A stretch of DNA of 64,000 nt, from the NCBI GenBank assembly GCA_963838925.1, contig CAWISW010000002.1, forward strand, positions 224,001 through 288,000, written 5' to 3'. Positions 5,914 through 44,739 of this stretch are shown here, in pieces. Every line of letters starts with the position of its first letter. Position 1 is the first letter of the stretch. The DNA comes from an uncultured Nitrososphaerota archaeon (GTDB lineage Archaea; Thermoproteota; Nitrososphaeria; Nitrososphaerales; Gagatemarchaeaceae). The notes beneath the pieces are model-generated. The model had not been told where the DNA came from. It saw nothing but the letters and a program-made list of their open reading frames with translations, and ran no database searches. Position numbers and translations under genes: made by a program.

Positions 5914-6321
5914 ATGGAGATGTCCACACTAGTAGCGGCGAACGCCAGCCAGATCACCATCGACGGGAAGACGGTGCCAGGGATCCAGTCCATCGACTTC
6001 AAGATAGCGAGGAACAGGCAGAACATCCACGCCATCAGCACCGAGGAGCGCCTCGGCGCCTACTATGGCGCCCTGTTCGTCCAGGGCTCGATGAAGATAA
6101 AGTCCAACTACGACCCGTTGGACAAGAAGATGTACGAGACCATCCCCGCGCTCAAGTTCTTCCAGGTCGTGGTCCAGCTTCAGCCTCAGGCCGTGACCAG
6201 CCCCACCAAGAAGATCACCTTCGACGAGTGCATCCTCGAGGACAAGACCTTCGCGATGGACGCGACCGGCGTCGGGATGACGACGTACAACTTCACAGCC
6301 ACTAGAATCCGCGAAGAGTAG
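5914..6321 (+). CDS. Tail tube protein
   Basis: 135-aa beta-rich protein directly after sheath; KITFDECI and TYNFTAT tube-like pattern. Confidence 0.75.
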   Translation: MEMSTLVAANASQITIDGKTVPGIQSIDFKIARNRQNIHAISTEERLGAYYGALFVQGSMKIKSNYDPLDKKMYETIPALKFFQVVVQLQPQAVTSPTKKITFDECILEDKTFAMDATGVGMTTYNFTATRIREE

Positions 6322-9900: not shown

Positions 9901-10304
9901 CTCGAGAGGGCCGCGGGAACGCCGAGGGGGTCTTCTTCGGCCTAGAGGCGGTCGCGCATGCCCTTTCGCTCGCTGCCAGGCTTCCGTCAGCCGCGCAGCT
10001 TAACGGCGCTCTCGCACCGATGCCCTCGAGGACCAGGGCGCCTGCCAAGGGCACGGCCCCAGCAAGGCAGGCAGCGAGGGAGGGCTCCTCGGAGGTCGGT
10101 TTCACGGCAGAGCCGTCCCGCCAGTCCGCCGAGGGCTGGAGGTCTGTCCCCGAAGAGTCAATCTCAAGGATGCTCGGAGAGCCGTCAGGCCGGCCAACGC
10201 CCCCCGCCCAAGACGCCGCTGTGGAACCTGACGACCGCGAGCTCCGGAGGAAGATCGAGAGGATCATCGACGAGGACCTTAGGAGGTACGGGTACCAGCC
10301 ATGA
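6930..10304 (+). CDS. Long Ala/Ser/Pro/Gly-rich protein in the tape-measure gene position
   Basis: 1124 aa, low complexity, helical C-terminal ELRRKIERIIDEDLRRYG; follows the chaperone pair. Confidence 0.55.
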   Translation: MAKRSESELDRLRKTVASYVKGLIVLGLAAQTLSSSGGSYLAVSRLIGAGIALASRLQRGIVVRVVGAPLVRRRPRRRSRAEASEEYPEPSGSAAEGATARDQASTGWEEVVPPSLALAEIDSQPFSLARALPSIVAAQQSTFRALSSVNAAVSRAVGGAGFASSPSRAPPSLTALEQGQRPSPEAFPENQATSFAGGMPALAAGVAFRAAASSMAFNLSSAAHEMTNIALGSQAVGANFASQQPRAAKEGTGFLPASPAAPSPSLAQQSITGNVDTTFKGAQPSGANLGLVSSAGGASPPTTQAPAAPSAALPLTRESSGAPGLSAEVGGPAAGSQSGGVTAGTSSSGSGVELNAGPYTVPNGFNSVLASPPVAAASRLSMQVRSLAASASSGQLPIRASQEPSHSGSPTQALSVVPEQYPSTYPVGAAYSVSSLVASLGLGQTGRPEAPASAQEEAAARLTPEEAPGAEDATRTSRGAFVGEPLEARGAGIGGGPSSPEETALGGPQVYAEEGGAVASSSDARISNAQPVASRGEFASFAPVFGKRWLQSIAEAASIGGAMLGMLTGSAALPWDGTWIQKVGAEARPTLPSRSVSGQAIAPPSSAVGGGRILGRGAIVPEAQAAPEARATQLSSTVSGQPIAPSSSGVDGSRASGRRELIPEVEAAPAGTATSPSATPASTEVPRGTEWRDLAKREEDISPTSGRNVPARPQEPESSQAPHRQAGISTWEAATLLPGILTPSLSAALSAQAPPSPSASLDLNSRPAVSISTSGLGLEGETAPRQSFDALRLAASLRSALLGVSASLMGARTTLPAESAMKPTLRPQLAQYLEATAGRGPGTFVSTGASGVSRRVDSFELSRAQRAREAFQGPTEVASFATTNLAALQAAFVSRGLIPGGAVGRAGSAPSLTIEAAGGEGQKATPGTLAPASRSPLARRALGQSSAAPELSSRELEERAHATNAGRDHSASRGVSPTSERDLEAVLASLSREGRGNAEGVFFGLEAVAHALSLAARLPSAAQLNGALAPMPSRTRAPAKGTAPARQAAREGSSEVGFTAEPSRQSAEGWRSVPEESISRMLGEPSGRPTPPAQDAAVEPDDRELRRKIERIIDEDLRRYGYQP

Positions 10305-12481
10305 GCATCACCCTCGACGACATGGAGCTGGTGGCTCGCGACGAGGGCGACCCCGGGACCGTCAACGAGTTCAGGACCGTGAACCGGATATTCCTCAAGG
10401 GCAAGAGGCGCCTCGTCGAGACGAGGACGGCCGGCGCCGAAGGCAGCATCTTCGAGGACACGGGGAGAAGGGCCGCCGTCGTCGCCATCGAGGGCGAGAT
10501 GGTCGGGAAGACCGCGAGGACCAGCCTCGCCTCGCTGAAGACCAAGTACGACTCCAGCGAGCCCGTCTCGTTCTCCTCCGACATCTCTACCCTGGCGAAC
10601 ATCAGCCAGGTGGTCGTCGAGCGGCTCAGCATCCGCCAGCTGGCGGGGAAGGTCGACCACTACGAGTTCGCCATGACCCTCAAGGAGTACGTCTCCTCCG
10701 AAGCCCAGGACTCTTCGCCGCTTTCCCAGCTTGGCGATGCCTCCGCCGCGGTGGACGCGGTCGCCGCCGGTGAGCTCACCTCCGCGCTCGCCGACAGCGT
10801 CGACTCCAGCTTCGCCAGCGTCGAGGCGCTGAAGAACGCCGCCGAGCTTGACGTGCCCTCCCTCCTGAGCGACGCCAAGGGGCTGCTCGACGACGTGAAG
10901 GGCGCGGCCGCGGCCGAGATGGACGCCGCCGTGGAGGCAGCAGAGGAGAGCGCGAAGGAGGCGGAGGAAGCCGCCGAGCAGGCCTTCGACGAGGTGGTCA
11001 AGGTGGCGGAGGACTCCACCGAGGAGGTCCAGCAGGAGCTGGAGGCGACCGTCGAGAAGAGCAGGACCCTCCTGCAGGGGGTAATCGACGCCCTCCAGAG
11101 CGCCATAGACAAGGTGAACGAGGTCACCGACCGCATAGAGACGGATGTCCTCGAGAAGGCCCAGCAGTACGTCAAGGAGGCAGAGGACAAGCTCACAGGC
11201 CAGATCCGAGACACCGTCAACGAGGCGAGCAGCAAGCTCCAGGAGCTCATGGACGCGGGGAAGGAGCAGACCGACAAGGTCTTCGCTCTCATCCAAGATG
11301 TCATCGACAAGCTAGCCGCCGCGAAGGCTCAGATCGAGGCAAAGCTCGACTCGGCTAGCGAGAGCGCGGACGACCTCCTTGACAAAGCCACCGAGATGAA
11401 GTCGAGCCTCGAGCAGACCTTGGACGACGTCTTCCAAAAGGCCGCAGACGCGCTCGAGAAGGTCCGGGGGATCTCAGACCAGATGGCGGGCGCGGGAGAG
11501 GCCATCCAGGGGATCATCGACAAGTGCACGCAGTTCAAGCTTGACAAGGCCGCGGGCGCTGCGAAGAGCGCCAAGGACCTCCTCGAGAAGGCCGCGTCGA
11601 CCGCCGCCGAGGCGGTCTCGACGGTCACCGGGGCGCTCACTGACGCCAAGGGCCAGTACGAGGACATCAAGAGCACCCTCGACGGCGCCCTCGACGACCT
11701 CCGCGACGCCAAGGCGAAGGGCATCGAAGCGGTCAAGGGCGCGCTCGACAAGGTACAGAGCAAGGTGCTCGAGGTCCAGGCCACCGCGCAGAAGTTCGTG
11801 GACGACCTGTTCCAGAAGGCCAACGACCTTGTAACCGGGATCCAGCAGACGGTTCTGGCGACGCTCGACCAGCTCGTGGCCGACATCGACAAGATAGTCG
11901 AGACCGTGAAGGAGGGGATCCAGCAGGTACTCGAGGTCGCGCGGAAGACCGCCGTGGACGTGCTCACGCAGGCCCAAGACGCAGTGAGGGGGATCGAGGC
12001 GACCATCGAGAGCATCGGCCCCAAGCTCCAGGCCGAGAAGGACAAGGTAATCGCGCTGGTCACCGGGGCGAAGGAGCAGCTGGAGAAGGCGAAGGACGCC
12101 GTCACGACAGCCCTATCGAAGGTCAAAGAGGCCAAGGACAACGTGAGCGTCGGAGCGATAACCGACGCGATAAGCGCCATCAAGGACGCGGTGAAGGTTG
12201 TCAAGGACGCCGCCCAGTGGGCCACCCAGGCCGCGAAGGACGCTCAGGGCATACTCACGGCCGCCCTGGCGATTGCCGACGAGGTCAAGAAAGCGGCGAT
12301 GGACATGGCCGCGGCCTTCGAGAAGGCAGCCCAGGCCGTGAAGAGCGCAGCCGAGCAGGTCGCGGAGATTGCCGAGACGACCGCATCGTCCGTGGCGGAC
12401 CAGGCGAAGGGCGCCGCGGGAGACCTCGGCCAGGGCGTCGACAGCGTCACCGCAAAGGGGAAGGGAGCCCTTGGGAGTTAA
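10301..12481 (+). CDS. Mu gp43/DNA-circularisation-N-like (tube initiator) domain fused to long amphipathic helical repeat
   Basis: First ~130 aa (RRLVETRTAGAEGSIFEDTGR...IEGE...TLKEY) then ~590 aa of roughly 11-residue Ala/Asp/Lys helical repeats. Confidence 0.65.
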   Translation: MSITLDDMELVARDEGDPGTVNEFRTVNRIFLKGKRRLVETRTAGAEGSIFEDTGRRAAVVAIEGEMVGKTARTSLASLKTKYDSSEPVSFSSDISTLANISQVVVERLSIRQLAGKVDHYEFAMTLKEYVSSEAQDSSPLSQLGDASAAVDAVAAGELTSALADSVDSSFASVEALKNAAELDVPSLLSDAKGLLDDVKGAAAAEMDAAVEAAEESAKEAEEAAEQAFDEVVKVAEDSTEEVQQELEATVEKSRTLLQGVIDALQSAIDKVNEVTDRIETDVLEKAQQYVKEAEDKLTGQIRDTVNEASSKLQELMDAGKEQTDKVFALIQDVIDKLAAAKAQIEAKLDSASESADDLLDKATEMKSSLEQTLDDVFQKAADALEKVRGISDQMAGAGEAIQGIIDKCTQFKLDKAAGAAKSAKDLLEKAASTAAEAVSTVTGALTDAKGQYEDIKSTLDGALDDLRDAKAKGIEAVKGALDKVQSKVLEVQATAQKFVDDLFQKANDLVTGIQQTVLATLDQLVADIDKIVETVKEGIQQVLEVARKTAVDVLTQAQDAVRGIEATIESIGPKLQAEKDKVIALVTGAKEQLEKAKDAVTTALSKVKEAKDNVSVGAITDAISAIKDAVKVVKDAAQWATQAAKDAQGILTAALAIADEVKKAAMDMAAAFEKAAQAVKSAAEQVAEIAETTASSVADQAKGAAGDLGQGVDSVTAKGKGALGS

Positions 12482-13076
12482 GCAGTCCTCGGACTCCGTC
12501 GCCTCCAAGGGGAGCGACGCGAGCAGCAAGGCCGACGACGCCGGTCAGCACGCGCAGAACGCCGACAACCTGCAGAAGCTCCAGCCCCCGGTCGACAAGG
12601 TGAACCAGACCGTCCAGAAGGCAGTCCCTCCCGCGCTCAGCGCCATCCAGACTGCCTTCGCTACCGCGCTCCAGGCGAGGAACCTCGCCCAGGCCGCGAG
12701 GATAACGCAAAGCCCCGCACAGCTCATGGTCGCCCAGGCGATGGTCGGAGGGGCGCTCGCCTCGGCACAGGCGGCCGCGGCGCAGATAGGCCAGTCCAAG
12801 GCCCTGGTGAGCGGGGCCAAGTCCATGATCCAGGGCGCGGCGGCCACGGCCAAGTCCGCGTCGGACCAGGCCAAGTCCAAGGCCAAGGAGGGCTCGGACA
12901 AGGCGAAGGCAGCAGAGGAGGGGGCGAAGGGCCAGGCGGACCAGGCGAGGTCACAGGCGAGCGAGCAGACAGAGGCTGCGAAAGGCAAGGCGCAGGCCGC
13001 GCAATCTCAGGCGACCGAGGGCGCGACGGCCGCGAAATCCCAGGGCGAGGGAGCACTAGATGGAAGTAAAGCTTGA
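12471..13076 (+). CDS. Ala/Gln/Lys-rich helical protein
   Basis: Probable TTG start at 12471 overlapping the previous stop; coding-like region begins there (MGVKQSSDSV). Confidence 0.55.
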   Translation: MGVKQSSDSVASKGSDASSKADDAGQHAQNADNLQKLQPPVDKVNQTVQKAVPPALSAIQTAFATALQARNLAQAARITQSPAQLMVAQAMVGGALASAQAAAAQIGQSKALVSGAKSMIQGAAATAKSASDQAKSKAKEGSDKAKAAEEGAKGQADQARSQASEQTEAAKGKAQAAQSQATEGATAAKSQGEGALDGSKA

Positions 13077-13815
13077 CGACATCGACCTCGTGAAGCGGAC
13101 GCAGTCCTCCGCGACCTCGCCCCTCAGCGAGGTGAGGACGGTCTACGACGTCCACGTCGAGGGGAAGAGGAGCATCGTTGAGCTGAAGGTCCCCGGGTCG
13201 AGCGGGAACGTCCTCCAGGACATGGGCAGGGAGCCCATCACCATCCTCATCAAGGGAGAGGTCTGGGGCCCCGACGCCAAGGCCACGGTAACTTCGCTAA
13301 AGGCCAAGTCGGACACGGGGGACTCGGTCTCCTTCACCTCGGACCTCCTCGCCGCAGCCTCTGTGAGCGAGGTCATCGTCGAAGAACTCCAGGTGGACCA
13401 GATCGCCGGCAACCCGACGAGATATCGCTACCTCATGCTGCTGCGGGAGTTCAAGGAGGGAGGAGAGGCGACCGAGGGCGCGGCGAGCGAGACCGACGAG
13501 ATAGCGGAGCAGGAGGCCCGGGACCAAGCGGCTCAGGACGCGGCCGACGAGGCTGCCAAGGAGGGCGAGATACACGACATCCGGGTCCAGCTCCGGGACC
13601 ACGCGGGAGCCCTCATCCCGGAGGTCGAAGTGACCATCGAGGGGCCCGATGGGACTAACAAGTCGAAGACCGACGAGGAGGGCTACGTGGTCGTGAAGGA
13701 CGCCAAGGAGGGCACCTACGACATCTCGGTCTCTGACGACAGGTTCGGCGACGTCAGGGTGCAGGTCGAGGTGAAGAAGAAGGCGGGCGACCAAGGGGAG
13801 GAGGCCGGGGCATGA
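13060..13815 (+). CDS. Second gp43-like paralog with C-terminal carboxypeptidase-regulatory/transthyretin-like beta domain
   Basis: N-terminus aligns by eye with the 10301 protein (KRSIVELKVPGSSGNVLQDMGREP); C-terminus KTDEEGYVVVKDAKEGTYDISV. Confidence 0.65.
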   Translation: MEVKLDDIDLVKRTQSSATSPLSEVRTVYDVHVEGKRSIVELKVPGSSGNVLQDMGREPITILIKGEVWGPDAKATVTSLKAKSDTGDSVSFTSDLLAAASVSEVIVEELQVDQIAGNPTRYRYLMLLREFKEGGEATEGAASETDEIAEQEARDQAAQDAADEAAKEGEIHDIRVQLRDHAGALIPEVEVTIEGPDGTNKSKTDEEGYVVVKDAKEGTYDISVSDDRFGDVRVQVEVKKKAGDQGEEAGA

Positions 13816-15578
13816 GCGCCACCCAGCTCGCCACCACTAGCGTGGAGGAGCTCGGGAGCGGGGGCATCTTTACGACCGCGGTGACCATAGAGGCGCCCGC
13901 GCCCGGCTTCCTCTGCGTGAAGGTTGTCACCGACAAGCTCCTGAAGGAGCAGAAGGGGCTCACCGTCAAGTTCTATCCGAGCGACACCTCTGGCGCCATC
14001 AGGGGCGACCAGATAGGGGAGGACGCGACGACCGACGAGAAGGGCGTGGCAGGCGTAGACAAGAGGCTCCCGCCCGGGTACTTCGCCTGCGTGGTGGACG
14101 GAATGACGGTAAGGGTCCGCCCCATCGACGTGCAGACCTACGCGGAGGCCTCGGAGAACCCCTACCCGCTGGGGCTGCCCCGAGGGTTCCTCGCCGTCAA
14201 GCTGCTCTTCAGGAACCTCCCCATCCCGAACTTCAAGGTGAGCTTCTTCGAAACGGGCGAGGACGGGGCCAAGAAGGGCGCCGCCCTCGGGAGCGCCCCC
14301 GGCGCCGACAAGGGACTCCCGACCGACAAGAACGGTGAGGTCGCATTGGTGGGCGACGAGTTCAAGCTCGGAAACTATCTCTGCGAGCTCGAGGGCAAGT
14401 GGGTCGCTGCCGTCAGCACCGTAGAAGACACGGCGCGCCCCTACGTGCTCATGCTCCCGCTGGTCAGGCCGCTCATCGCCTACCAGAGCCCCGGGAGGAT
14501 AGAAGGGGAGGTCGAAGTCCCCGAGCTACCAGACGCCTCGAGCGGATGCCTCTCAGTCAAGGTGCTCTTCAGGGACCTTCCCGTCGTCGGGCGCAACGTG
14601 ACCTTCTACGCAGGCGACAAGGACGGCAAGGCGGCGGCCGACCAGCCGAAGGGGGAGGCAATCACCGACAACGAAGGGGTCGCCGCCCTCTCCGACAAGG
14701 CGATTCTGGGGAACTACTTCTGCCAGGTCGAGGGGGTGGCGGGGTTTGCCTCGGTCGGGACCGTCGAGGATCCGAAGCTCCCGTACGTCGTCTCGCTCCC
14801 GCTAGTCCGGCCTTTCATAGCGCACCAGAAGCCCGGCGACATCAAGTCCCTGGAGGTCGTGGAGCGGCCCGACGGCTCTTACGGCTTCCTGTGCGTGCGG
14901 GTGCTCTTCCGAGGCGTCCCCCTGACGGGCGCCAAGGTGAGCTTCTTCCAGTCCGGCCCGGACGGGACTCCCCTGACGCGAGAGGGGTCAGCCGGGGAAG
15001 CTATCACAGACAACCAGGGGGTCGCCGCCCTGGGCTCGAAGGCCGCGCTCGGGAACTACTTCTGCCAGGTCGACGGCCAGCCCGGGTTCGCCTCGATCAG
15101 CACCGTCGAGGACACCAAGGAGCCCTACGCGATTCTTCTGCCGGTGGGGCGGGCGCTCCTCACCGTGAGAGAGCCAGGAAGGATCGAGCCGGTGTCGAGC
15201 CCCGTCGACGAGCGGCCCTCCGAAGCCGGAGCCTACCTCTCGGTCATGGTCCTCTTCAGGAACGTACCCGCGCGGGGCCTCAACGTGCTCTTCTTCGCCG
15301 CGACTCCCAACGGGACAGCGGACCTTGCCCAGCAAAAAGGCGAGGCGGTTACGGACAACCTGGGGATCGCGGCGATGGAGAACCCCGCGAAGCTAGGGAA
15401 CTACTTCTGCCAAGTGGAGGGGCACGCAGGGTACGTCTCGATCAGCACGGTGGAGGACAAGGACCTGCCCTACGTGGTGAACCTGCCCCAAGGGCGACCA
15501 TACCTAGCCCTGGGCAAGCCCGGCGCCATCCCTCAGCTGAAGGAAGTCGAGGAGCGCGACCCGCCCGAGGAAAAGTAG
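13812..15578 (+). CDS. Five-repeat beta-sandwich protein (~115-aa repeats)
   Basis: Recurrent GxLxVxVLFR...TDNxGVAAL...LGNYFCQVEG...STVED..PY motif; repeat 1 is divergent. Confidence 0.75.
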   Translation: MSATQLATTSVEELGSGGIFTTAVTIEAPAPGFLCVKVVTDKLLKEQKGLTVKFYPSDTSGAIRGDQIGEDATTDEKGVAGVDKRLPPGYFACVVDGMTVRVRPIDVQTYAEASENPYPLGLPRGFLAVKLLFRNLPIPNFKVSFFETGEDGAKKGAALGSAPGADKGLPTDKNGEVALVGDEFKLGNYLCELEGKWVAAVSTVEDTARPYVLMLPLVRPLIAYQSPGRIEGEVEVPELPDASSGCLSVKVLFRDLPVVGRNVTFYAGDKDGKAAADQPKGEAITDNEGVAALSDKAILGNYFCQVEGVAGFASVGTVEDPKLPYVVSLPLVRPFIAHQKPGDIKSLEVVERPDGSYGFLCVRVLFRGVPLTGAKVSFFQSGPDGTPLTREGSAGEAITDNQGVAALGSKAALGNYFCQVDGQPGFASISTVEDTKEPYAILLPVGRALLTVREPGRIEPVSSPVDERPSEAGAYLSVMVLFRNVPARGLNVLFFAATPNGTADLAQQKGEAVTDNLGIAAMENPAKLGNYFCQVEGHAGYVSISTVEDKDLPYVVNLPQGRPYLALGKPGAIPQLKEVEERDPPEEK

Positions 15579-15631: not shown

Positions 15632-16666
15632 TTGTCCTCGTCCAAGGCCATGGGAATCCACACTCTCATCAGGTCCAGCGACGTCAAGGACTACTTCAAG
15701 AGCGACGAAGAGTTCGACGACGTCTACGACAAGGCCGAGAACTACAGGGAGAAGATCCGCATCGCGGTCATCGACGAAGGCGTCCACAAGGACGCCGGTC
15801 TCCCGGACGTCCCGAAGGACGGATACCTCTCGGCCCGCTGCGTCAGCCACGTGGTCTCCTCTGGGATCGCCGAGTTCAACGAAAAGTCGATAAGCCACGG
15901 GACTCGCGTAGCCGCGATAGCGGTCTGGGGCAACCCCTGCCTTAACCTCCTGGACTATAGGGTAAGGACTCAGGCCGCGGTAGGTTCGATAGGGGCCCGG
16001 GAGGCGGACAAAGAAGTGCCGCTCGTGAAGACGGCGATGGAGGCGGCCGTCAAGGCCGAGGCATCGGTGATCGTCTCCGCGCTCGCCACCGAGAACAAGA
16101 AGAAGGTCTACAAGGACAACGGCGTCGACAAGCTCATCACCGACAACCCCAACGTCCTCTTCGTGTTCGGCGCTGGGAACAACGGCAGAGACCTCGACTC
16201 GTACGACGTCTGCCCAGCCGGCCTAGGCCCGGCTGACAACATGGTGATTGTGGGTGGCTGCAGCTCTCTCTTCGCGACCTCGGCGGCCCCGGACACCGGA
16301 GGGTCCGACATCCAGTTCGGCTTCGGAGGGAAGACGGTGGACGTTGCGAGCTTCGCCGACAACCTCACCCTCTACGACCCGGGACTCCGCTATTACTACG
16401 CCCAAGCCGCCGGGATGGACGTCGCCAAGATACCGCTCCTACCGGCCACCGACACGGGAGTCTCCTTCGCAATCCCGCAAGTCGCGAACGTCTGCGCCAA
16501 GATGCTCGCGATCAACTCACACTTGCGACCCAAGGACGTGAAGTACCTCATCAGGGAGACCGGCACAGACGCGAGAGGCCCCCTCGCGAGCGCGAACATC
16601 ACCAAAGGGACCATCGCTCCAAAGTCCTGCTACCTCGCGGCGGTCAAGTATGAGCCAGAGTCGTAG
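15632..16666 (+). CDS. S8 subtilisin-like serine protease (candidate CIS cargo)
   Basis: IAVIDEG (Asp), HGTRVA (His), GAGNNG (oxyanion Asn), GVSFAIP (Ser); start TTG 15632 (or ATG 15650) behind TTATAA at 15600-15605; no signal peptide. Confidence 0.85.
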   Translation: MSSSKAMGIHTLIRSSDVKDYFKSDEEFDDVYDKAENYREKIRIAVIDEGVHKDAGLPDVPKDGYLSARCVSHVVSSGIAEFNEKSISHGTRVAAIAVWGNPCLNLLDYRVRTQAAVGSIGAREADKEVPLVKTAMEAAVKAEASVIVSALATENKKKVYKDNGVDKLITDNPNVLFVFGAGNNGRDLDSYDVCPAGLGPADNMVIVGGCSSLFATSAAPDTGGSDIQFGFGGKTVDVASFADNLTLYDPGLRYYYAQAAGMDVAKIPLLPATDTGVSFAIPQVANVCAKMLAINSHLRPKDVKYLIRETGTDARGPLASANITKGTIAPKSCYLAAVKYEPES

Positions 16667-16739: not shown

Positions 16740-19424
16740 TTGTCGGAGCAGAATCGCGCGATAATCGTCCGTGCCGAGGCCGACCCCGAGTCCAACAGGT
16801 ACTCGCAGGCGACCTTCGACGTAAAGTTCCACTTCCTCAGCGAGGACTCCGGCAAGAGGATAGACTTCAAGCTCTTCGAGATAGAGAGGGACAAGGACGG
16901 AAAGGTCACCAAGAAGACTTTCGTCCCGGGCACCAAGGTCTCTGGCGTGCTCGAGAAGAAGTCCGGTGTCGGCAGGGCGGACTCGGAGAAGAAGGAGCTC
17001 GTCCCTGTCGCCTACCTGATGACCTTCAAACCCGACGGCGCAAGGCCAGACGTTGCAACGACCCTCCCCCGCATATCGTTCCTGTTCGACTCCTCGGCCA
17101 ACCCTTACTTCGTCCCGCTCCCCGACGGCAAGCCCCGCGAGCTCCAAGTCCGGATCAAGCTCACCCCTGACGGAAGCGGCGGCGCGAACTCCCCAGACCC
17201 CGCGGCGGCCGACTCGCCCGACGTGGTTGCCTCTCCCTACTTCAACGTCTCAGGGCACTTCATTGTGCCGGTCGGGGGGATGGCAACCTACGACTGGTAT
17301 TCGGGGAACGCGGTCACGTTCTACTCCAACGCGAGCAAGGACGACAAGGGAACCGAGGGCGCCTTCCACGACATCGGCGACGCCATAGCCAAGGCAAAAC
17401 ACTTCGTCCTCATCTGCGACTGGTCCTTCCACCCCTACATGCGGCTCGCCCACACCGAGAAGCCGGAGATCAAGGACACGATAGGCGGGATCCTCGTCGC
17501 AAAGGCGAAGGAGAACAAGGACATCCTGATCGCGATACACACGTGGGACCACCCTGTCGTGGGGGCTGCCAAGGACAGCGACAACGACTTCGCGCACATG
17601 CAGCTCCGGGACATCGCCCGGGCGCTCGCCAAGCCGGACGAGAAGGTCGACTGGAAGCCTCCCAACCTCCTCTGGCGCGCCAGCACGCACACGGGGGTCG
17701 GCTACTCGCACCACCAGAAGATGGTCGTCGTGGACTGCGAGGCCGAGGGCCAGAAGGGCCGCAGGGACATCAAGGTCTTCTTCGGCGGGCTCGACCTGAC
17801 CAAGGGACGATTCGACTGGTGGGCGCACCCTATCATGCCGCCCCCGGAGTCGAACCCAGAGGCGAAGGCGAAGGAGGCCACCGCCTTCGACGCGACGAGC
17901 TCCGGCTTCGTCAAGGCCATCCCTGCCACGGGCTACGGGTACCGCTCGCTGGGCGGCCTCTCCAAGCAGGCCTTCGACGGGTTCAGCGTCCTGACCGAGT
18001 ACGAGTACGACGACTGGTACAACGCCGAGTTCGGCGGCAACCAGGAGATGCCCAGGCAGCCATGGCACGACATCCACGCCCAGCTGACCGGCCCGACAGC
18101 CTGGGACATGGTTAGGGAGTTTGTCGGGAGGTGGAACGTCGATCCTGCCTCCCCCGAGGCGCGCGGCGACAGGAACGTCGACGCCGTGACCAGGGTCGTC
18201 GGCAAGTTCGCGTTCATCCTCTCCGAGAGGACCGAGGACGACAAGAACTTCCTCTTTGTCCAGCAGTATGAGAAGAGGGACCCGAAGGACGGGCAGTTCA
18301 TCGGCCAGGTCCTGAGGTCGATAAAGAAGGAGCATTGGGGCCCGCCCTCCGTGGGCAACTGGTTCCCCACCAAGGTGCAGGTCGTTGGGGCATCGCCGAA
18401 GGAGTTCGAATGGATACTCAACTGGGGCTCAGAGAGCAGCATCCAGGAGGCGTACGTCCGGGCCATCGCGGGGGCGCAGAGGTTCGTCTACATCGAGAGC
18501 CAGTACTTCATCGGCGCCGGGGTCGCATACGCCAAGAGCGTCAACAACAAGATCCCGAAGACCATCGTGAAGAGGGTGCTGCAGATGATCGAGAACAAGA
18601 AGCCCTTCCACGTCTACGTCGTAATCCCGATGTACCCAGAGGGGAACCCCGACGAGGGCGCCCTCCGCGTCGTGAGGGAGTACGAGGCGAGCACGATGGA
18701 GTACATCGCCACGAACGTCCAGAACGCTTGCGAAGCGCAGGCGAAGAAGGACTCGAGCTTCAAGGGCACCTGGAAGGACTATGTCTCCTTCTACTTCCCA
18801 GCGCGGTGGGACAGGAGGGGTAAGGTCGACATCTCCGGCAAGAGGCAGAAGCGGGTCTCCGCGAACCAGAGGTACATGATCTACGTCCACTCGAAGCTGA
18901 TGATAGTCGACGACGAGTTTGTAATAGTCGGGAGCGCAAACCTGAACGAGAGGAGCCTCGCGGGGGACCGCGACACGGAGATCTGCATAGGCATGACGGC
19001 GCAGGACCAGGCCGCGCGCACGCAGGTCCAGAACTTCAGGCTCGACCTTTGGAGCGAGCTGCTGGGCAATGCAAAGGCAAAGGCCCAGCCTAAGGACGCG
19101 TGGAAGACCCCTGAGACGGCGGGGTGCGTCGGGGACATCAAGGTGAGGGCCACGAACAATTACGTCGGGCTGAGGACGAACTCCGCCACCGACACCAGCG
19201 GGTTCCTCTGCATCTTCCCGATTGACTGGGAGAAGGGGAAGAAGGGCGACTGGAACCCGGTCTTCTTCAGCGATCCGAACCACAAGGACGTGGACTGGCT
19301 GGTCATGCCCGACGCCGACAACGAGGGGACCCGCTGGATAGACAAGACCACCTGGCGATGGGACTCTCCCGGGGCGATGCGGTCCTCGGGCGCTATCATC
19401 CGCCTGACGGACCTCCCGGAGTAG
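16740..19424 (+). CDS. Eukaryote/plant-type phospholipase D (candidate CIS toxin)
   Basis: Two HKD motifs, HHQKMVVVD and YVHSKLMIVDD..IVGSANLNERS; also GGLDLTKGRFD, PRQPWHDIH, YIESQYF. Confidence 0.92.
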   Translation: MSEQNRAIIVRAEADPESNRYSQATFDVKFHFLSEDSGKRIDFKLFEIERDKDGKVTKKTFVPGTKVSGVLEKKSGVGRADSEKKELVPVAYLMTFKPDGARPDVATTLPRISFLFDSSANPYFVPLPDGKPRELQVRIKLTPDGSGGANSPDPAAADSPDVVASPYFNVSGHFIVPVGGMATYDWYSGNAVTFYSNASKDDKGTEGAFHDIGDAIAKAKHFVLICDWSFHPYMRLAHTEKPEIKDTIGGILVAKAKENKDILIAIHTWDHPVVGAAKDSDNDFAHMQLRDIARALAKPDEKVDWKPPNLLWRASTHTGVGYSHHQKMVVVDCEAEGQKGRRDIKVFFGGLDLTKGRFDWWAHPIMPPPESNPEAKAKEATAFDATSSGFVKAIPATGYGYRSLGGLSKQAFDGFSVLTEYEYDDWYNAEFGGNQEMPRQPWHDIHAQLTGPTAWDMVREFVGRWNVDPASPEARGDRNVDAVTRVVGKFAFILSERTEDDKNFLFVQQYEKRDPKDGQFIGQVLRSIKKEHWGPPSVGNWFPTKVQVVGASPKEFEWILNWGSESSIQEAYVRAIAGAQRFVYIESQYFIGAGVAYAKSVNNKIPKTIVKRVLQMIENKKPFHVYVVIPMYPEGNPDEGALRVVREYEASTMEYIATNVQNACEAQAKKDSSFKGTWKDYVSFYFPARWDRRGKVDISGKRQKRVSANQRYMIYVHSKLMIVDDEFVIVGSANLNERSLAGDRDTEICIGMTAQDQAARTQVQNFRLDLWSELLGNAKAKAQPKDAWKTPETAGCVGDIKVRATNNYVGLRTNSATDTSGFLCIFPIDWEKGKKGDWNPVFFSDPNHKDVDWLVMPDADNEGTRWIDKTTWRWDSPGAMRSSGAIIRLTDLPE

Positions 19425-19437
19425 GAGATGGCGAGGT

Positions 19438-20403
19438 TTGCTGAAGCCGTCCTACAGCCTCTCGATGGGCTCTGCGAGCGTCGACCCGGACTCTAGCACC
19501 GACCTTATCTCGCTGAGGATAGACACTTCGATGAACGGCCCCGCAGGATGCTTCGAGGCCGTCCTCCGTTCGTCTGGGGGGCTGAGCGTCTCAAGGGGCG
19601 ACTCGATCACAGCCTCCCTGGGGTACGACGACACGGAGAACGTCTTCACCGGCGTGGTCGACGTAGTCGACGCGGGCTTCCACACGGTGAGGGTTTTCGG
19701 GCTCAACTCCATCGCCAAGATGATGCGCCGGCGCGCCAACACGTCCTACGAGTCCCAGACCTGCGGTGCGATCGTCTCCGACATGGCCGGGACGGCCGAG
19801 GTCACGCCGGGGGACGTCGAGGACGGCCTCACTCTTCCTTACTACATCGTCGACAGCGACATGTCCTTCCACGAGCACACGATGAGGCTCGCGAGGAGGA
19901 ACGGCTTCGACGTCTTCGCGAACGCCGACGACGAGCTCTGCTTCAAAGCTTACGAGGCATCCTCGGCAACAACCTTCGAGTACGGCAAGGACGTCATCCA
20001 TGTCTCGAGGCTCGACCAGGAGCCGGTCTACAAGGGAGTCAAGGTCTTCGGGGAGAGCCCCTCGAGCTCCCAGGGGGAGGACTCGATTCACTGGCTCACA
20101 AAGACCCCCGTCCAAGGCGAGAGCGGCAGCGGCAACGAGCTCATCGTCCAGGACGCCTCCCTCAGGGACACCGACTCCGCCGGATCTGCTGCCGAGGCGA
20201 TCCAGGGGCGATTCTCAAAGTCAATCGCCGTCATCCTCGACGTCGTGGGGAACGCCGCCGTGAAGCTCAACGACACCGTCGAAATCTCGGAGATGCCAGA
20301 CTCTTCCATCAACGGGGAGTATCAGGTTACCCGAGTGGAGCACTTCCTCGCAAAGTCCAAGGGATTCACCACGTCCTTCCGCCTCCTCGGTTCGTCGGAG
20401 TGA
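19438..20403 (+). CDS. Baseplate hub (Mu gp44/P2 gpD/gp27-like)
   Basis: SLGYDD..VFTGVVD, LARRNGF, FEYGKDVI, GEYQVTRVEH...GFTT pattern. Confidence 0.85.
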   Translation: MLKPSYSLSMGSASVDPDSSTDLISLRIDTSMNGPAGCFEAVLRSSGGLSVSRGDSITASLGYDDTENVFTGVVDVVDAGFHTVRVFGLNSIAKMMRRRANTSYESQTCGAIVSDMAGTAEVTPGDVEDGLTLPYYIVDSDMSFHEHTMRLARRNGFDVFANADDELCFKAYEASSATTFEYGKDVIHVSRLDQEPVYKGVKVFGESPSSSQGEDSIHWLTKTPVQGESGSGNELIVQDASLRDTDSAGSAAEAIQGRFSKSIAVILDVVGNAAVKLNDTVEISEMPDSSINGEYQVTRVEHFLAKSKGFTTSFRLLGSSE

Positions 20404-20480: not shown

Positions 20481-20906
20481 ATGAGCGAAGAGAAGCCCGT
20501 TCTTGGCAAGGACCTTCGACTCGTCTACGCGGACGTCGGCGCAGACCTCAAGGTCTCCCCGTCCGGTGACCTCGAGCTCGTCGACGACGAGCTCAACCTG
20601 GGCCAGGCGATAGTCCACAGGATGAGGACCCGTCCCGGGGAGCTCCTTGACATCGGGCACTCCTCCTACGGCTCAAAGCTCTACGACCTCATCGGGGAGC
20701 CCAACAACGAGGCCACGCGGGAGAAGGTGAGGGCGGTGGTCATCGAGGCCCTCGAGAGGGAGCCACGAGTGAAGAAGGTCGTGAAGGTCTCTGTGACGGT
20801 GAGGAGGGACAGGCCCGACGCCGTAGACGTAGACGTGAGCCTCATCGCGACGGACACTGAGGTGCCGCTCAACGTCGTCTTCCCGTTCTACCTGGAGAAC
20901 GCATAG
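20481..20906 (+). CDS. gp25/GPW-like baseplate wedge (sheath initiator)
   Basis: NLGQAIVHRMRTRPGEL..H.SYGSKLYDLIGEP, EALEREPRV, NVVFPFYL. Confidence 0.9.
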   Translation: MSEEKPVLGKDLRLVYADVGADLKVSPSGDLELVDDELNLGQAIVHRMRTRPGELLDIGHSSYGSKLYDLIGEPNNEATREKVRAVVIEALEREPRVKKVVKVSVTVRRDRPDAVDVDVSLIATDTEVPLNVVFPFYLENA

Positions 20907-20907
20907 C

Positions 20908-22521
20908 ATGTCCTACGAGACCAAGTCCTTCGAGGAGATCACGACGTCGATGCTCGAGCAGCTCACCAAGGCGGTCGTGAGGGAGAACCTGGTCTACGAC
21001 CCGACCAAGGTCAGATACCGCCTGGGCTCCGGCGAGGACGGAATCCGCGACGTGGTCAAGGTCGAAGGCCCGGTGAAGGGGGTGCGGGCGTCCTTCGCAA
21101 AGGGGACCGACTATCGGCTCTCGGAGGGGATGTTTGAGTGGTTAGAGGGCGGGAAACGACCCGACGTCATGTCGACGTTCGAGGTCTCATACCTCTTCGG
21201 TAGCCCGTCGCCCATCACGGACGTCAACCCGGGGAGCGTCGTTCGGACCATCATCGAGGCCATAGGCCGGGAGATCGAGTACCTGTACGCCCAGAACGAC
21301 TACGTCTACAAGGCGGGGTTCATAGACACCGCCTCCGGCAACTCGCTTGACCTCGTGGTCGCGATCCTCGGCGTGCAGAGAAGGCCTGCCCAGAACGCGG
21401 CGGGGCTGGTGACGTTCGGCAGGAGGAAGCCCCCGCCGGAGTTGCCTCCACAGGAGCAGGTGATAGTCTATGACGGAGGGAAGAAGTACGACCTGAAGCG
21501 GACGCCGGTCTTCGACATCATCAGCGTCAAGGGAATGCTGCACAACCAGCCGTTCGTCTTCAAGAAGGGTGCGGACTATTCCCTCGACGGCGACTCGCTA
21601 TCGTGGCTCGAGAGCACGTTCAAGCCCGACTACCGCTCAGAGTTCAGGGTCGCCTACAAGGCGTACCAGCAAGTGGCCATACCGAAGGGGACCCGGCTCT
21701 CCACCTCCTCCCGCCGTAAGCAGGAGGTGAAGCTCTTCGAGACCACAGATGAGGCTGTCCTCCAGAGGAAGCCGCTGGGCGTTTGGGAGGTCGACGTCCC
21801 CGTGAAGGCCGTGGACGCGGGCCCCGGGGGCAATGTGCTTTCGGGAAGCATCACGCTGATGCCTCAGCCGGTCGAGACGATAGAATTCGTGGTCAACAGG
21901 CAGCCCTTGAGCGGGGGCACCGAGCCAGAGACCGACAACGTCCTGAGGGACAGGGCGAAGAAAGGGCTCCGGGCACTTGGACGCGCCACATACAACTCGC
22001 TCAAGCAGCGCATCGAGGAGATTGACGGCGTCGTCAGGCCCGTGAGGATAGACGAGATGCCCGTCCTCTACTCCGTGGAGATGGGGGGGAGCGCGGTGGA
22101 CCTGCCGGTCCCGGGCGTGGTCAGGGTCATCGTCGACGGAGGGGAGATGGACAAGATCAAACAGGCGGTCGACGACACTAGGGCCGCGGGCGTATACGTC
22201 CAGATACTTCGGCCTAAGTTCCTGCTGCTCGACGTCCGGGTGCTCCTGGAGCTACAGGACGGGACCCAGCTCGCCGACGTCGAAGAGGCGATCAAGGACG
22301 GGGTGGAGGCCTACGTCGGCTCCGTCACGACAGGCGAGACGGTGATATTCGGGAGGCTCGTAGCCGTCGCGCTGGCCTCGAAGGGGGTGAGGGACGTCAA
22401 GGGCATCGCCGTGGACTACTACAGGGACGGCCAGCCGGGCGGCAGCAGCTCCAGGGAGAACATCGTGCTAGACGCGGACGAGAAGCCAAGGGTCAGGACA
22501 GTGAGCGTGCTAGTCGGGTGA
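20908..22521 (+). CDS. Baseplate J-like wedge protein
   Basis: DVNPGSVVRTIIEA, FIDTASGNSLD, AGPGGNV, GGTEPETDNVLRDRA, RAAGV. Confidence 0.9.
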   Translation: MSYETKSFEEITTSMLEQLTKAVVRENLVYDPTKVRYRLGSGEDGIRDVVKVEGPVKGVRASFAKGTDYRLSEGMFEWLEGGKRPDVMSTFEVSYLFGSPSPITDVNPGSVVRTIIEAIGREIEYLYAQNDYVYKAGFIDTASGNSLDLVVAILGVQRRPAQNAAGLVTFGRRKPPPELPPQEQVIVYDGGKKYDLKRTPVFDIISVKGMLHNQPFVFKKGADYSLDGDSLSWLESTFKPDYRSEFRVAYKAYQQVAIPKGTRLSTSSRRKQEVKLFETTDEAVLQRKPLGVWEVDVPVKAVDAGPGGNVLSGSITLMPQPVETIEFVVNRQPLSGGTEPETDNVLRDRAKKGLRALGRATYNSLKQRIEEIDGVVRPVRIDEMPVLYSVEMGGSAVDLPVPGVVRVIVDGGEMDKIKQAVDDTRAAGVYVQILRPKFLLLDVRVLLELQDGTQLADVEEAIKDGVEAYVGSVTTGETVIFGRLVAVALASKGVRDVKGIAVDYYRDGQPGGSSSRENIVLDADEKPRVRTVSVLVG

Positions 22522-23444
22522 CGATAGAATTGGAGAGGACCAGGCGGATTGCTGACAGGCTCCCCGAGTTCTACAGGACCTGGGACACCGACTCCGTCAT
22601 CTTCAAGGTCCTCGACTCGGTGGGGCGGTCCCTCAACGAGGAGCAGAAGAGCGTCTTCCGCATCATGCGGACACACTGGGTGGACACCGCCAACCGCGGC
22701 GACCTCGACAAGCTGGGCGCGATATTCGAGCTCACGAGGACCAACGAAGAGGCCGACGACGACTATCGCGCACGAATCAAGAGCGCGCTCCGGCAGTTCA
22801 AGGGCGGCGGCACAGTGGCATCCGTCAAGACTCTGATGGCCGACTTCCTCTCCGTGAGGGAGGAGGAGCTTGAGGTAGTGGAGAACCCCGAGCGCAAAAT
22901 GTCGATTGAAAAGAGAGTCGCGGGCGGCCAGACCTGGACCCTCGGGAGCATGAGCGTCGAGGAGGCCTCCCCGGTGATCGAGATGACGCTCCAGGGCGAG
23001 GGGAATGTCGTGCTAAACCCGGCGCTGAGGAACCTGGACTCGGGCGGGCGCGTGGGCTTCGAAGGGCGGTTCAGGGTCGGCCAGAGGCTGGTCATGAGCG
23101 AGGGCTCCGCCACACTCGACGGGGAAGACGTCTCGTCTTTGGTCACCGCCTCGCCCGCGTTCCCGAGGCTCAGTTCGGGCGGCTCGCGCTGGGTCTACGA
23201 GGAGGCCATCTCGGCGAAGGTCGGCCACCTCTCGAAGAGCTCCTTCGGCTCCTCGATCTTCGCCCTTCCGGTGCCCGACGCGGTGATACGCCTGACCTGG
23301 TCAGGGAGGCAGCCCTCTACCTTCGCGCTGCGGGTCCCTCCGAGGGCACTGGCGGCCAGCGGTGTGTCCGAGGGCGAGGCCGCGGACTTTCTTAATACTA
23401 TAAAGGGAGCAGGCGTGCGGGCAGAACTGGTTGTGAAGGAGTAG
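22518..23444 (+). CDS. Baseplate wedge protein (P2 gpI/Mu gp48-like)
   Basis: RLPEFY, DLDKLGAIF..R..EADDDYRARIK...GGGTV, IKGAGV. Confidence 0.75.
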   Translation: MTIELERTRRIADRLPEFYRTWDTDSVIFKVLDSVGRSLNEEQKSVFRIMRTHWVDTANRGDLDKLGAIFELTRTNEEADDDYRARIKSALRQFKGGGTVASVKTLMADFLSVREEELEVVENPERKMSIEKRVAGGQTWTLGSMSVEEASPVIEMTLQGEGNVVLNPALRNLDSGGRVGFEGRFRVGQRLVMSEGSATLDGEDVSSLVTASPAFPRLSSGGSRWVYEEAISAKVGHLSKSSFGSSIFALPVPDAVIRLTWSGRQPSTFALRVPPRALAASGVSEGEAADFLNTIKGAGVRAELVVKE

Positions 23445-24837: not shown

Positions 24838-25470
24838 ATGAGCGGAATAGTCGAGGCGATGAAGAAGGTCGCGGAGTCGGAGGTGGGGAAGGTCCACGTG
24901 GCCGAGCTCGGCGTCGTCACATCGGTCTTCCCCCACGCCGACGAGGGCGACAACGACAACTACGAGTGCAGCGTGAAGCTCAGGGACAAGGACGTCGAGC
25001 TCCGGCAGGTCCCAGTCGCGACGCAGCACATAGGGTTCGCGAGCATCCCACAGGTGGGGGACCTCGTCCTGGTCTCGTTCGTCAATGGGGACGTCAACGC
25101 CCCAGTCATCACTGGGCGCCTCTACAACGACGAGGACCGCCCCCCCGCATCACAGGCAGAAGAGATGGTCTACATCCCTCCCTACACCTCGAACCCTGAC
25201 CTCCGCAGGATATACATCGAGCTGCCCGACCAGACGGTCACTCTCACCATCCAGGACGAGAAAGTGACAATCCACGTCGGGGACACCGACGTCGCAATAA
25301 GCAAGGAGGAGGGCGTCAGCCTCACCTCGAAGCTGCCGATATCGATAAGCACCGAGGACGACCTCTCGATAAAGGCGAAGAACGTCAAGATAGAGAGCGA
25401 CGCCGACACCGAGATCACGGCGAGCGGAAAGACCACGATCAAGGGGACCACCGTGGACCTCAACCCGTAG
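24838..25470 (+). CDS. Central spike (gpV/gp5-like, OB fold plus short beta-helix)
   Basis: ELGVVTSV, IPQVGDLVLVSFVNGDVNAPVITGRLYN; C-terminal TIKGTTVDLNP. Confidence 0.9.
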   Translation: MSGIVEAMKKVAESEVGKVHVAELGVVTSVFPHADEGDNDNYECSVKLRDKDVELRQVPVATQHIGFASIPQVGDLVLVSFVNGDVNAPVITGRLYNDEDRPPASQAEEMVYIPPYTSNPDLRRIYIELPDQTVTLTIQDEKVTIHVGDTDVAISKEEGVSLTSKLPISISTEDDLSIKAKNVKIESDADTEITASGKTTIKGTTVDLNP

Positions 25471-25479
25471 TGGGACCCA

Positions 25480-25797
25480 ATGCCAGCCGCCGCCCGCCAG
25501 ACTGATCCGGTGCAAGGCAACTGCAGCCACGGCTGCCCCATATGCCCCCACCCGGTCGTGGGGATTGTCTCCGCCGGCTCGCCGACCGTGCTCATAAACA
25601 GCCTGCCTGCAGCGAGGCAGGACGACAAGGGGCTGCACGCCCCCTGCTGCGGCCCGAACAACTTCACCGTCGCAAAGGGCTCTGGTACCGTGAACATCAA
25701 CGGAAAGCCGGCCGCGAGGAGCGGGGACAGCACAAAGCACTGCGGAGGCGACGGCTCGATACAGAACGGTAGCCCGACCGTGAACATAGGAGGCTAG
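25480..25797 (+). CDS. PAAR-repeat spike tip protein
   Basis: PAAARQTD, PAARQDD, PAARSGD; His/Cys metal ligands; GSPTVNIGG end. Confidence 0.95.
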   Translation: MPAAARQTDPVQGNCSHGCPICPHPVVGIVSAGSPTVLINSLPAARQDDKGLHAPCCGPNNFTVAKGSGTVNINGKPAARSGDSTKHCGGDGSIQNGSPTVNIGG

Positions 25798-44735: not shown

Positions 44736-44739
44736 TCCA

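Follow-up and report, generated by a model that had tools for sequence, protein, structure and literature searches.

Introduction

Phospholipase D (PLD) effectors of type VI secretion systems (T6SS), toxins of extracellular contractile injection systems (eCIS) and archaeal eCIS loci are already known. In Pseudomonas aeruginosa, the transthyretin (TTR)-like C-terminal domains of VgrG4b and VgrG5 specifically stabilize and deliver PldA and PldB (PMC6684961), and PldA is fully inactivated by the VgrG4b C-terminus together with the immunity protein PA3488 (PMC9550806). Most eCIS toxins have no recognizable immunity gene (PMC8213781), and the words "lipase" and "PLD" are not in the main text of that article. 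Genome surveys placed 10 of 631 contractile injection system (CIS) loci in archaea (PMC6899500) and reported such loci from one archaeal phylum (PMC8213781). In this study, we analyzed a PLD gene that lies inside a CIS operon in a stretch of 64,000 nucleotides (hereafter the window) from an uncultured Nitrososphaerota archaeon (assembly GCA_963838925.1, contig CAWISW010000002.1, positions 224,001 to 288,000 of the forward strand).

To our knowledge, the cargo of archaeal CIS is largely unknown, and the ways in which archaea attack or manipulate their neighbors are poorly known. The PLD gene stands within an operon that runs from a sheath gene to a PAAR gene, and an injected effector is therefore the best reading of it. 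We propose that the enzyme is CIS cargo, that a protein encoded just upstream (g588) loads it, restrains it or both, and that the two genes belong to a bacterial module inserted in a variable slot of the operon; we put the probability of this reading at roughly 0.6.

The gene encodes an intact, eukaryote-like phospholipase D

The central feature of the window is the following.

16740..19424, + strand: two-HKD phospholipase D, 894 aa, in which a linker joins an N-terminal beta-sandwich (residues 1 to about 141) to a catalytic region of eukaryote-like type (residues about 180 to 894)

The open reading frame (ORF) is real. It begins with a TTG codon that agrees with the N-termini of close homologues, which begin MSEQNRAIIVRA, and GGTGA lies 8 nt upstream of this start. 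The stop codon TAG occupies 19422-19424 and the hub gene begins with TTG at 19438, so that the spacer is 13 nt, as an earlier preliminary description of this DNA had stated; nothing is encoded there. That description had also named both HKD motifs and a set of plant PLD-alpha-like motifs, and we found every one of them in the translation: HHQK (residues 324-327), GGLDLTKGRFD (349-359), PRQPWHDIH (438-446), YIESQYF (584-590), MIYVHSK (713-719) and RDTEI (744-748). The first HxKxxxxD motif spans residues 325-332 (HQKMVVVD) and the second 717-724 (HSKLMIVD). Both of these and GSANLNERS are intact in all four archaeal orthologues.

Pfam assigned the protein to PLDc (E 1.9e-13, 50.2 bits against a curated cut-off of 21.9) and PLDc_2 (E 5.5e-10, 39.6 bits against 27); as a sequence assignment, the motif set together with these matches is far beyond chance. 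In a sequence search of solved structures, the top match was plant PLD-alpha1 (6kz8), at E 6.6e-59 over three stretches, followed by human PLD1 (3.6e-29), PLD2 (2.1e-25) and 7v53 (4e-25), the last listed as a structure from the P. aeruginosa PldA paper. The GGxDLxxGRxD, PRxPWHD, IYIExQYF and GSANxNxRS blocks are all present and align with 6kz8. By these comparisons, the protein belongs to the long, eukaryote-like two-HKD class and looks active. It has no hydrophobic segment (top 19-residue Kyte-Doolittle window, 1.08) and no apparent membrane segment or signal peptide.

We weighed whether this could be a housekeeping lipid enzyme of the cardiolipin-synthase type, a superfamily relative that would likewise carry two HKD motifs. 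Cls_pld proteins have N-terminal membrane helices and are about 480 aa long (PMC8141893). The protein studied here has 894 aa and no membrane segments, and its gene is embedded in tail genes and patchily distributed, being found in 4 of 61 related genomes and in none of 400 others sampled from the phylum. The preliminary description had raised clustering with cardiolipin synthases as a point that would tell against its proposal; the best solved matches are instead PLD-alpha, PLD1/2 and PldA. We rejected the housekeeping identity, which is effectively refuted.

The gene lies in a phage-tail-type contractile injection operon

The host genome (1.84 Mb, 3 contigs, 87% complete) is archaeal by full-length ribosomal RNA matches to the Rfam archaeal small-subunit (1475 bits) and large-subunit models, and the closest PLDs on record are labelled Nitrososphaerota archaeon or Nitrososphaerales archaeon. 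AmoA (PF12942) had no match in this genome, but the control genomes gave none for the control either, so that the result carries no information. The sequencing runs listed were four DNA runs from a single study, with none of RNA. The PLD gene sits within a co-directional cluster of 22 kb (4552 to about 26618) that runs with short gaps from sheath to PAAR. We scanned 18 ORFs of the locus with Pfam (E<=0.01) and also used PHROG profiles. The features around the PLD gene are as follows.

4552..5904, + strand: tail sheath (Pfam Phage_sheath_1, E 3.6e-15; PHROG tail sheath, E 7e-51)
5914..6321, + strand: probable tube protein, assigned by position alone, with no Pfam match; 87-96% identity in relatives
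6930..10304, + strand: 1124-aa protein with no Pfam or PHROG family; 37-58% identity in relatives, diverging faster than its neighbors
10301..12481, + strand: tape-measure-like protein with N-terminal DUF6046 (Pfam DUF6046; PHROG tape measure, E 5.7e-12)
13060..13815, + strand: DUF6046 plus CarboxypepD_reg-like protein, the last conserved gene ahead of the variable slot
13812..15578, + strand: g588, five transthyretin-like copies, the partner of the PLD
15632..16666, + strand: subtilase (Peptidase_S8), between g588 and the PLD gene; start TTG 15632 or ATG 15650
19438..20403, + strand: baseplate hub, gpD-like (Pfam Phage_GPD, weak, E 0.0027; PHROG tail protein, E 2.2e-12)
20481..20906, + strand: gp25-like sheath initiator (Pfam and PHROG)
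20908..22521, + strand: Baseplate_J, gp6-like wedge (Pfam E 5.2e-25; PHROG E 6.4e-49)
22518..23444, + strand: baseplate protein (PHROG baseplate protein, E 4.4e-17)
24838..25470, + strand: spike with OB domain (Pfam Phage_base_V, E 4.6e-8)
25480..25797, + strand: PAAR tip protein (Pfam PAAR_motif, E 1.4e-14)

The results showed that the sheath, tape-measure-like protein, hub, gp25, Baseplate_J, OB-fold spike and PAAR protein are all encoded in this operon, which supports the earlier proposal of a candidate injected effector. Relatives of the hub align from hub residue 1-2. No head or packaging family was among the Pfam matches of the 18 ORFs, and cellular genes lie on both sides of the cluster, indicating a headless contractile tail, either a CIS or a tailocin-like element. 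These matches likewise included no T6SS-specific family, and the machine is a phage-type tail with spike and PAAR. The Afp16/Pvc16 cap had no match among the 18 ORFs, several of which are family-less.

A prophage was also considered and rejected: IMG/VR held no relative of Baseplate_J or of the PLD, and the phage collection gave only distant matches, the best sheath match having 25.7% identity and the PLD obtaining one weak match.

The 1124-aa gene at 6930-10304 lies among neighbors that are 74-96% identical in relatives, and genome G007 has an unrelated 919-aa gene at this place; the position may be a second variable slot. The DUF6046 N-terminal domains of 10301-12481 and 13060-13815 are paralogues with 36-39% mutual identity, fused to tape-measure-like repeats in the former and to a CarboxypepD_reg-like domain in the latter. 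Both domains have weak matches to the Mu DNA_circ_N family.

The PLD module occupies a variable slot of the operon

We searched 22 other genomes of the same genus and found the PLD in three (G008, G012 and G014), each time at the same operon position as in the window; it was found in none of 38 further relatives and, at E<=1e-10, in none of the 400 other genomes sampled from the phylum. The Baseplate_J protein of the CIS was present in 6 of the 22 genus genomes, namely these three and G004, G007 and G016. In the latter three, the CIS is 53-55% identical and no PLD was found. The PLD, g588 and the S8 protease were all absent from G007 and G016 by tblastn of loci L009-L011; the contig of G004 ends at Baseplate_J, so that its slot lies outside it.

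G008 and G012 have the S8 gene; the module of G014 lacks it and consists of g588 and the PLD gene. In G014, the module has diverged much more than the tail, with 42% identity for the PLD and 34% for g588 against 78% for the hub, 78% for Baseplate_J, 90% for the spike and 95% for PAAR. In G007, a 510-aa protein is encoded in the stretch from DUF6046 to the hub (L009:14485-16904). It contains HELGHSVGLWHH, a zinc motif of metzincin type (HExxHxxGxxH), and matches Reprolysin_5 at E 1.3e-5 and 26.0 bits, just under the cut-off of 27. Different hydrolases thus fill the site in different lineages, indicating a variable slot. The module of g588, S8 (where present) and PLD occupies this slot, between the tape-measure/DUF6046 genes and the hub.

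In G007, the 510-aa metzincin-like protein is followed by a 306-aa protein with tetratricopeptide repeats (TPR); the two may be another cargo with its helper.

Lysis genes are known to be embedded in tailocin clusters, and the contents of the slot raise the question of a release cassette, in which the S8 protease and the PLD would open the producer's own S-layer and membrane to free the particles and g588 would restrain the PLD until release. A protease and a lipid hydrolase do stand side by side, and no holin-like or other lysis gene was recognized among the ORFs scanned. The eCIS particles are thought to exit the cell by lysis (PMC11297309), and a two-HKD enzyme can hydrolyze archaeal ether phospholipids (PMC8141893). 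On the other side, the CIS of G007 and G016, which lack the module, would need release too, and G014 has the PLD and g588 with no S8 gene. We regard this explanation as unlikely, and the bacterial loci described below bear on it further.

The archaeal PLDs are nested among bacterial PLDs

We then examined the ancestry of the enzyme. A word-indexed protein search yielded 544 relatives at E<=0.001 among 7999 candidates scored. Five of them are 65-67% identical over the full length; the remaining matches listed are 33-44% identical and have bacterial or generic source names. The homologues, unnamed or bacterial, score 375-717 bits against the PLD. A scan of species-representative genomes gave 60 PLD loci, and all those beyond the archaeal ones were bacterial, from Abditibacteriota, Armatimonadota, Myxococcota, Chloroflexota, Planctomycetota, Acidobacteriota, Pseudomonadota and others.

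A maximum-likelihood tree was built from the catalytic regions of 34 rows (all the near-full-length rows of the 60 loci) and rooted on two distant gammaproteobacterial rows; all of its rows are archaeal or bacterial. The four archaeal PLDs formed one clade (SH-aLRT 100) nested among bacterial PLDs, with values of 96-97 on the enclosing branches. This placement within a bacterial radiation indicates that the gene was acquired from bacteria and not from plants, and a single transfer from bacteria into this archaeal lineage would be the simplest history compatible with the tree. The label of a plant- or eukaryote-type PLD given in the preliminary description therefore holds in part: the class is eukaryote-like, with 6kz8 as the best solved match, but the nearest relatives and the tree placement are bacterial. 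"Plant-type" is true of the enzyme class and not of its origin.

A conserved partner gene accompanies the PLD in archaea and bacteria

When the CIS proteins of the window were compared with the bacterial loci by tblastn, g588 unexpectedly matched DNA just upstream of bacterial PLDs. The protein (13812..15578, + strand) consists of five tandem copies of a domain of about 95 aa, has no predicted membrane segment and has a pI of 4.8. A hidden Markov model (HMM) of the repeat detected a single copy, encoded on the strand of the PLD and directly upstream of it, in L016, L018-L021, L023, L024, L031, L034, L035, L037-L039 and L041, and one copy within 3 kb of the PLD in L029, L036 and L048. The short bacterial partners (about 135-190 aa) have an acidic tail and no evident signal peptide; the long ones (about 450 aa) carry OmpA-like and PG_binding_1 domains ahead of the transthyretin-like domain.

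The structural model of the g588 repeat (predicted local distance difference test, pLDDT, 88.8) showed a sandwich of the transthyretin-like or prealbumin type. Foldseek matched it to transthyretin, hydroxyisourate hydrolase and SlaB with probability 1.00 and E 6e-4 to 3e-3. The VIA structure search gave Z scores up to 9.2, with CnaB pilin domains and a carboxypeptidase-D TTR-like domain also among the matches.

The partner was present for 19 of 19 PLD rows with the N-terminal domain, archaeal and bacterial, and for 0 of 11 rows clearly without it; four rows in which this domain was ambiguous were dropped (L037 and L048 with a partner, L032 without one, and L042 at a contig start). Among the 61 related archaeal genomes, the partner domain occurred only in the four with the PLD, in five copies each and with no orphan copies. 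The distances of partner and PLD co-vary (r = 0.90). The link between the N-terminal domain and the partner is a pattern and not a statistical test. Fusion of the partner domain to spikes was also considered: a word-indexed search for longer proteins returned only 15 matches, none of them with a VgrG family, which is weak evidence.

The preliminary description had found no adjacent immunity gene and no room for one. The second point holds downstream, where the gap to the hub is 13 nt, and fails upstream, where g588 sits; this gene, the sole neighbor conserved with the PLD across bacteria and archaea, had been overlooked. It could load the PLD, inhibit it or do both. That the partner was retained in all four archaeal genomes suggests that the PLD needs handling even in an archaeal cell.

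The N-terminal domain is private to this PLD family

An AlphaFold2 model of the N-terminal domain (pLDDT 75.9; pTM, the predicted template modelling score, 0.72) contained eight strands in residues 7-141, followed by a low-confidence linker. By this model, residues 1 to about 141 are an eight-stranded beta-sandwich, in keeping with the beta-rich N-terminal region described earlier. Foldseek found no match for it in the Protein Data Bank (PDB) at E<=0.001. In the VIA search, the best Z score was 6.1, with many immunoglobulin-like sandwiches tied and the N-domain of a Bacteroides fragilis T6SS effector at 6.0; there was no C2 entry among the 50 matches listed. Residues 1-185 had no Pfam match, and a PDB profile search found nothing, C2 included, at E<=10. 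A weak lead from a protein language model (0.76) pointed to a cluster of C2-bearing plant PLD-alpha proteins. Eukaryotic PLDs carry C2 or PX/PH membrane-binding domains (PMC9550806), and the N-terminal domain may be their counterpart; it may stand in place of a lipid-binding domain, as described earlier, or be a divergent form of one.

An HMM of the domain matched the N-termini of 19 PLD rows, archaeal and bacterial. A profile search of 1.84 billion representative proteins returned 62 clusters at E<=0.001, of which 27 were scanned with Pfam. PLDc was present in all 15 scanned proteins of at least 795 aa. The 12 shorter ones were without a Pfam match, and 10 of these 12 continue into the PLD catalytic region by blastp, indicating truncated PLDs; P0130 and P0147 do not. 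Ten multi-stretch partial matches (P0132 and P0152-P0161) had no blastp match to the PLD and look like repeat proteins. The domain is therefore private to this PLD family. A general toxin-delivery module was rejected for the full-length matches, which were found only in PLDs.

One of the short proteins, P0130 (metagenome, 333 aa), has a stretch resembling the end of a hub/VgrG-like protein, then an arginine-rich low-complexity stretch and then the N-terminal domain. It is probably a frameshifted read-through of neighboring genes, hinting at the order hub/VgrG, then PLD, in its contig.

In the version suggested by the preliminary description, the PLD would be injected with no immunity partner, the producer would be safe because its ether or tetraether lipids are not substrates, and the N-terminal domain would be the signal for loading into the CIS. 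In agreement with this version, the gene does lie in a CIS operon, the 13 nt from PLD to hub encode nothing, and the protein has no apparent membrane segment or signal peptide. Against it, the PLD has a conserved upstream partner with which it strictly co-occurs, the N-domain profile found full-length matches only in PLDs, and ether links or a glycerol-1-phosphate backbone are in principle no block to HKD enzymes (PMC8141893). The loading signal in particular gains no support, since the domain is common to bacterial PLDs that mostly do not lie beside a CIS and is absent from eCIS-linked PLDs of Chloroflexota. Missing immunity genes, moreover, are the norm for eCIS toxins (PMC8213781). Taken as a whole, this version seems improbable to us.

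Injection systems have recruited the PLD family repeatedly

Of the 60 loci, 19 had a near-full-length PLD with flanking DNA, and at these we inspected 7 kb on each side of the PLD. In two Chloroflexota loci (L022 and L025), the PLD lies between a Pvc16_N gene and a sheath gene of an eCIS operon. In a Phycisphaerales locus (L034), the gene order is ClpV, VgrG, lysozyme, peptidoglycan-binding protein, partner, PLD. In L021, a Tox-PAAR-like gene lies 7 kb from the PLD. Injection systems recruit this PLD family repeatedly, and the family is not tied to them.

Three side observations concern these loci. The T6SS-type cluster of L034 (L034:90-10270) lies on one strand and includes a phage-lysozyme protein with a weak CarboxypepD_reg match, a PG_binding_1 protein and the OmpA, PG_binding_1 and TTR partner; it seems to hold two envelope-degrading effectors in series. 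L022:9803-14107 has two divergent PLD paralogues side by side between Pvc16_N and the sheath, from different clades of the tree. In L024:13268-16438, the full PLD has downstream of it two additional fragments of a PLD C-terminus (about 297 aa, with an HKD motif in each); both adjoin a 407-aa ORF on the other strand, and they look like duplicated remnants.

The bacterial loci also tell against the release cassette. The pair of PLD and partner stands beside a T6SS VgrG in L034 and PLDs of the family lie within eCIS operons in L022 and L025, places where effectors are expected, and most bacterial pairs have no tail genes at all within 7 kb.

Another idea is that g588 and the PLD are a self-contained passenger, for example an enzyme with an inhibitor or an envelope-anchoring subunit, serving lipid turnover or phosphate scavenging, which landed in a permissive operon site and is not physically connected with the particle. 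In its favor, the two genes are inherited together as a unit, 15 of the 19 inspected loci have no injector genes within 7 kb, and the long partners have peptidoglycan-binding domains. This idea is at odds with the archaeal genomes, where the module keeps the same mid-operon place and tight spacing in four of four cases through 42-72% divergence, and where the slot of G007 holds another hydrolase; PLDs of the family are moreover linked to eCIS or T6SS in three bacterial loci. We give this account little credence.

Genes flanking the operon

Just downstream of the CIS, a 322-aa protein encoded at 27449-28417 (- strand) weakly resembles pentameric ligand-gated ion channels in NCBIfam (E 1.6e-12, well short of the cut-off). 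At 34708-47813 there is a tryptophan operon (trpE, trpD, trpC, trpB and others), with aroA, aroC, aroE, prephenate dehydrogenase and an aminotransferase on the opposite strand. These tryptophan and shikimate/aromatic genes are ordinary core metabolism flanking the CIS.

Discussion

In this study, we found an intact PLD gene of bacterial ancestry in a variable slot of an archaeal CIS operon, together with a partner gene that accompanies the family in bacteria. From the integrity and family of the gene, its context, its ancestry, the co-occurrence of the partner and the variability of the slot, we infer the binding, loading, enzymatic activity and target of the PLD as follows. The PLD gene and its partner would have passed together, as one module, from bacteria to an ancestor of the genus. 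The five transthyretin-like domains of g588 would bind the PLD, most likely through the family-specific N-terminal beta-sandwich. This binding would keep the PLD stable, harmless or both in the producer, and would place it on or near the hub and spike of the particle. Upon contraction, the spike and PAAR tip would breach the target envelope, and the delivered PLD would hydrolyze the head-group phosphodiester of target membrane phospholipids. The S8 protease encoded in the slot may serve as another cargo or may open the envelope.

Several observations weigh against reading the PLD as a cargo handled by g588. The usual place of known eCIS toxin genes is beyond the downstream end of the operon and not mid-operon (PMC11297309). 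The eCIS-typical AAA+ ATPase (Afp15-like) was not found among the 18 ORFs by Pfam at E<=0.01, several of these ORFs being family-less. The likeness of the g588 repeat to VgrG TTR domains is one of fold class only, and no VgrG chain was among the 50 VIA matches listed. The OmpA-like and PG_binding_1 domains of the long bacterial partners point to an envelope role and not to a spike adaptor. On the tree, the co-occurrence of N-terminal domain and partner comes down to 2 independent contrasts (sign test, p 0.5), and the partial correlation of N-terminal domain and partner, given the catalytic domain, is 0.37. The eCIS-linked PLDs of L022 and L025 have neither the N-terminal domain nor the partner, so neither is needed for a CIS link. 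Finally, 15 of the 19 inspected bacterial loci have no CIS or T6SS marker within 7 kb, indicating that the pair works with no adjacent injector in most hosts.

A more specific and more tentative form of the cargo reading is that a portable two-part weapon crossed the domain boundary. The N-terminal domain would dock onto the free-standing TTR-like partner, the detached equivalent of the tail with which T6SS spikes bind effectors; the partner would silence the PLD and hand it to whatever contractile injector its host possesses, and the five-fold multiplication of the TTR-like domain after transfer would let the particle carry the PLD. We consider this possible, though on balance doubtful.

The protection of the producer also deserves comment. 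Immunity genes are missing for most eCIS toxins, as noted above, and the absence of one here therefore needs no special explanation; the preliminary description had taken it as a clue and had looked to ether and tetraether membranes for protection. The bond cut by a PLD is the head-group phosphodiester and not an ether or ester bond. An archaeal cardiolipin synthase with two HKD motifs is reported to be nonselective toward the stereochemistry of glycerol and the type of tail, and to hydrolyze archaetidylglycerol as a PLD would (PMC8141893). It is therefore unproven that the producer is intrinsically resistant, and its ether lipids may or may not protect it; they need not.

No description of a PLD inside an archaeal CIS, or of the pair of PLD and partner, was found in the literature searched, which included few subscription journals; supplementary tables of eCIS surveys, which possibly list such loci, were outside its scope. 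The locus offers a testable cargo candidate in a soil archaeon, with clear chemistry, bacterial origin and a slot filled by another hydrolase in a sister lineage. It also brings to light a pair of PLD and partner genes conserved in five or more bacterial phyla. Should the partner turn out to load or inhibit PLD effectors in general, it would serve as a marker for finding them. If the reading as a two-part weapon is true, the locus would be one of the earliest concrete candidates for a particle with which archaea are armed against bacterial or eukaryotic ester-lipid membranes. The case would also allow a clean test of whether ether-lipid membranes protect archaea from phospholipases.

Comparison with known systems

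Like P. aeruginosa PldA and PldB (Tle5a and Tle5b), the archaeal enzyme is a eukaryote-like two-HKD PLD associated with a contractile machine that bears a spike and PAAR, and a transthyretin-fold domain is encoded beside it, as in the pairing of PldA and PldB with VgrG4b and VgrG5. Whereas that domain is a spike tail in VgrG4b and VgrG5, the archaeal TTR-like domain forms a free-standing five-copy protein. Unlike the Tle5 machine, the archaeal one is a CIS of phage-tail type and not a T6SS, and nothing is encoded downstream of the PLD before the hub. The archaeal PLD also has an N-terminal beta-sandwich of its own, which sets it apart from PldA and PldB, and it is nearer to plant PLD-alpha (6.6e-59) than to PldA (7v53, 4e-25).

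With plant PLD-alpha1 (6KZ8/6KZ9), the archaeal enzyme shares the HKD motifs, GGxDLxxGRxD, PRxPWHDIH and IYIExQYF, and a beta-rich domain ahead of the catalytic region. Unlike in the plant enzyme, no C2 is detectable in it by Pfam or PDB profile search, and its identity to plant PLD-alpha1 is far below that to the bacterial homologues (33-44%).

The locus resembles the toxins of Afp/PVC-type eCIS (eCIS-associated toxins) in having an enzyme with toxin potential beside a headless tail, in its patchy and strain-specific distribution and in lacking an obvious immunity gene (PMC8213781, PMC11297309). It differs from them in position: their genes usually follow the last core gene (PMC11297309), whereas the archaeal PLD gene lies mid-operon, between the tape-measure-like gene and the hub.

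The bacterial pairs of PLD and partner in Myxococcota, Armatimonadota, Abditibacteriota, Planctomycetota and Acidobacteriota have the same N-terminal beta-sandwich, catalytic region and upstream TTR-like partner. Unlike g588, the bacterial partner is single-domain, alone or behind OmpA-like and PG_binding_1 domains, and most of the pairs do not lie beside an injector. In the tree, these bacterial pairs are the direct relatives of the archaeal module.

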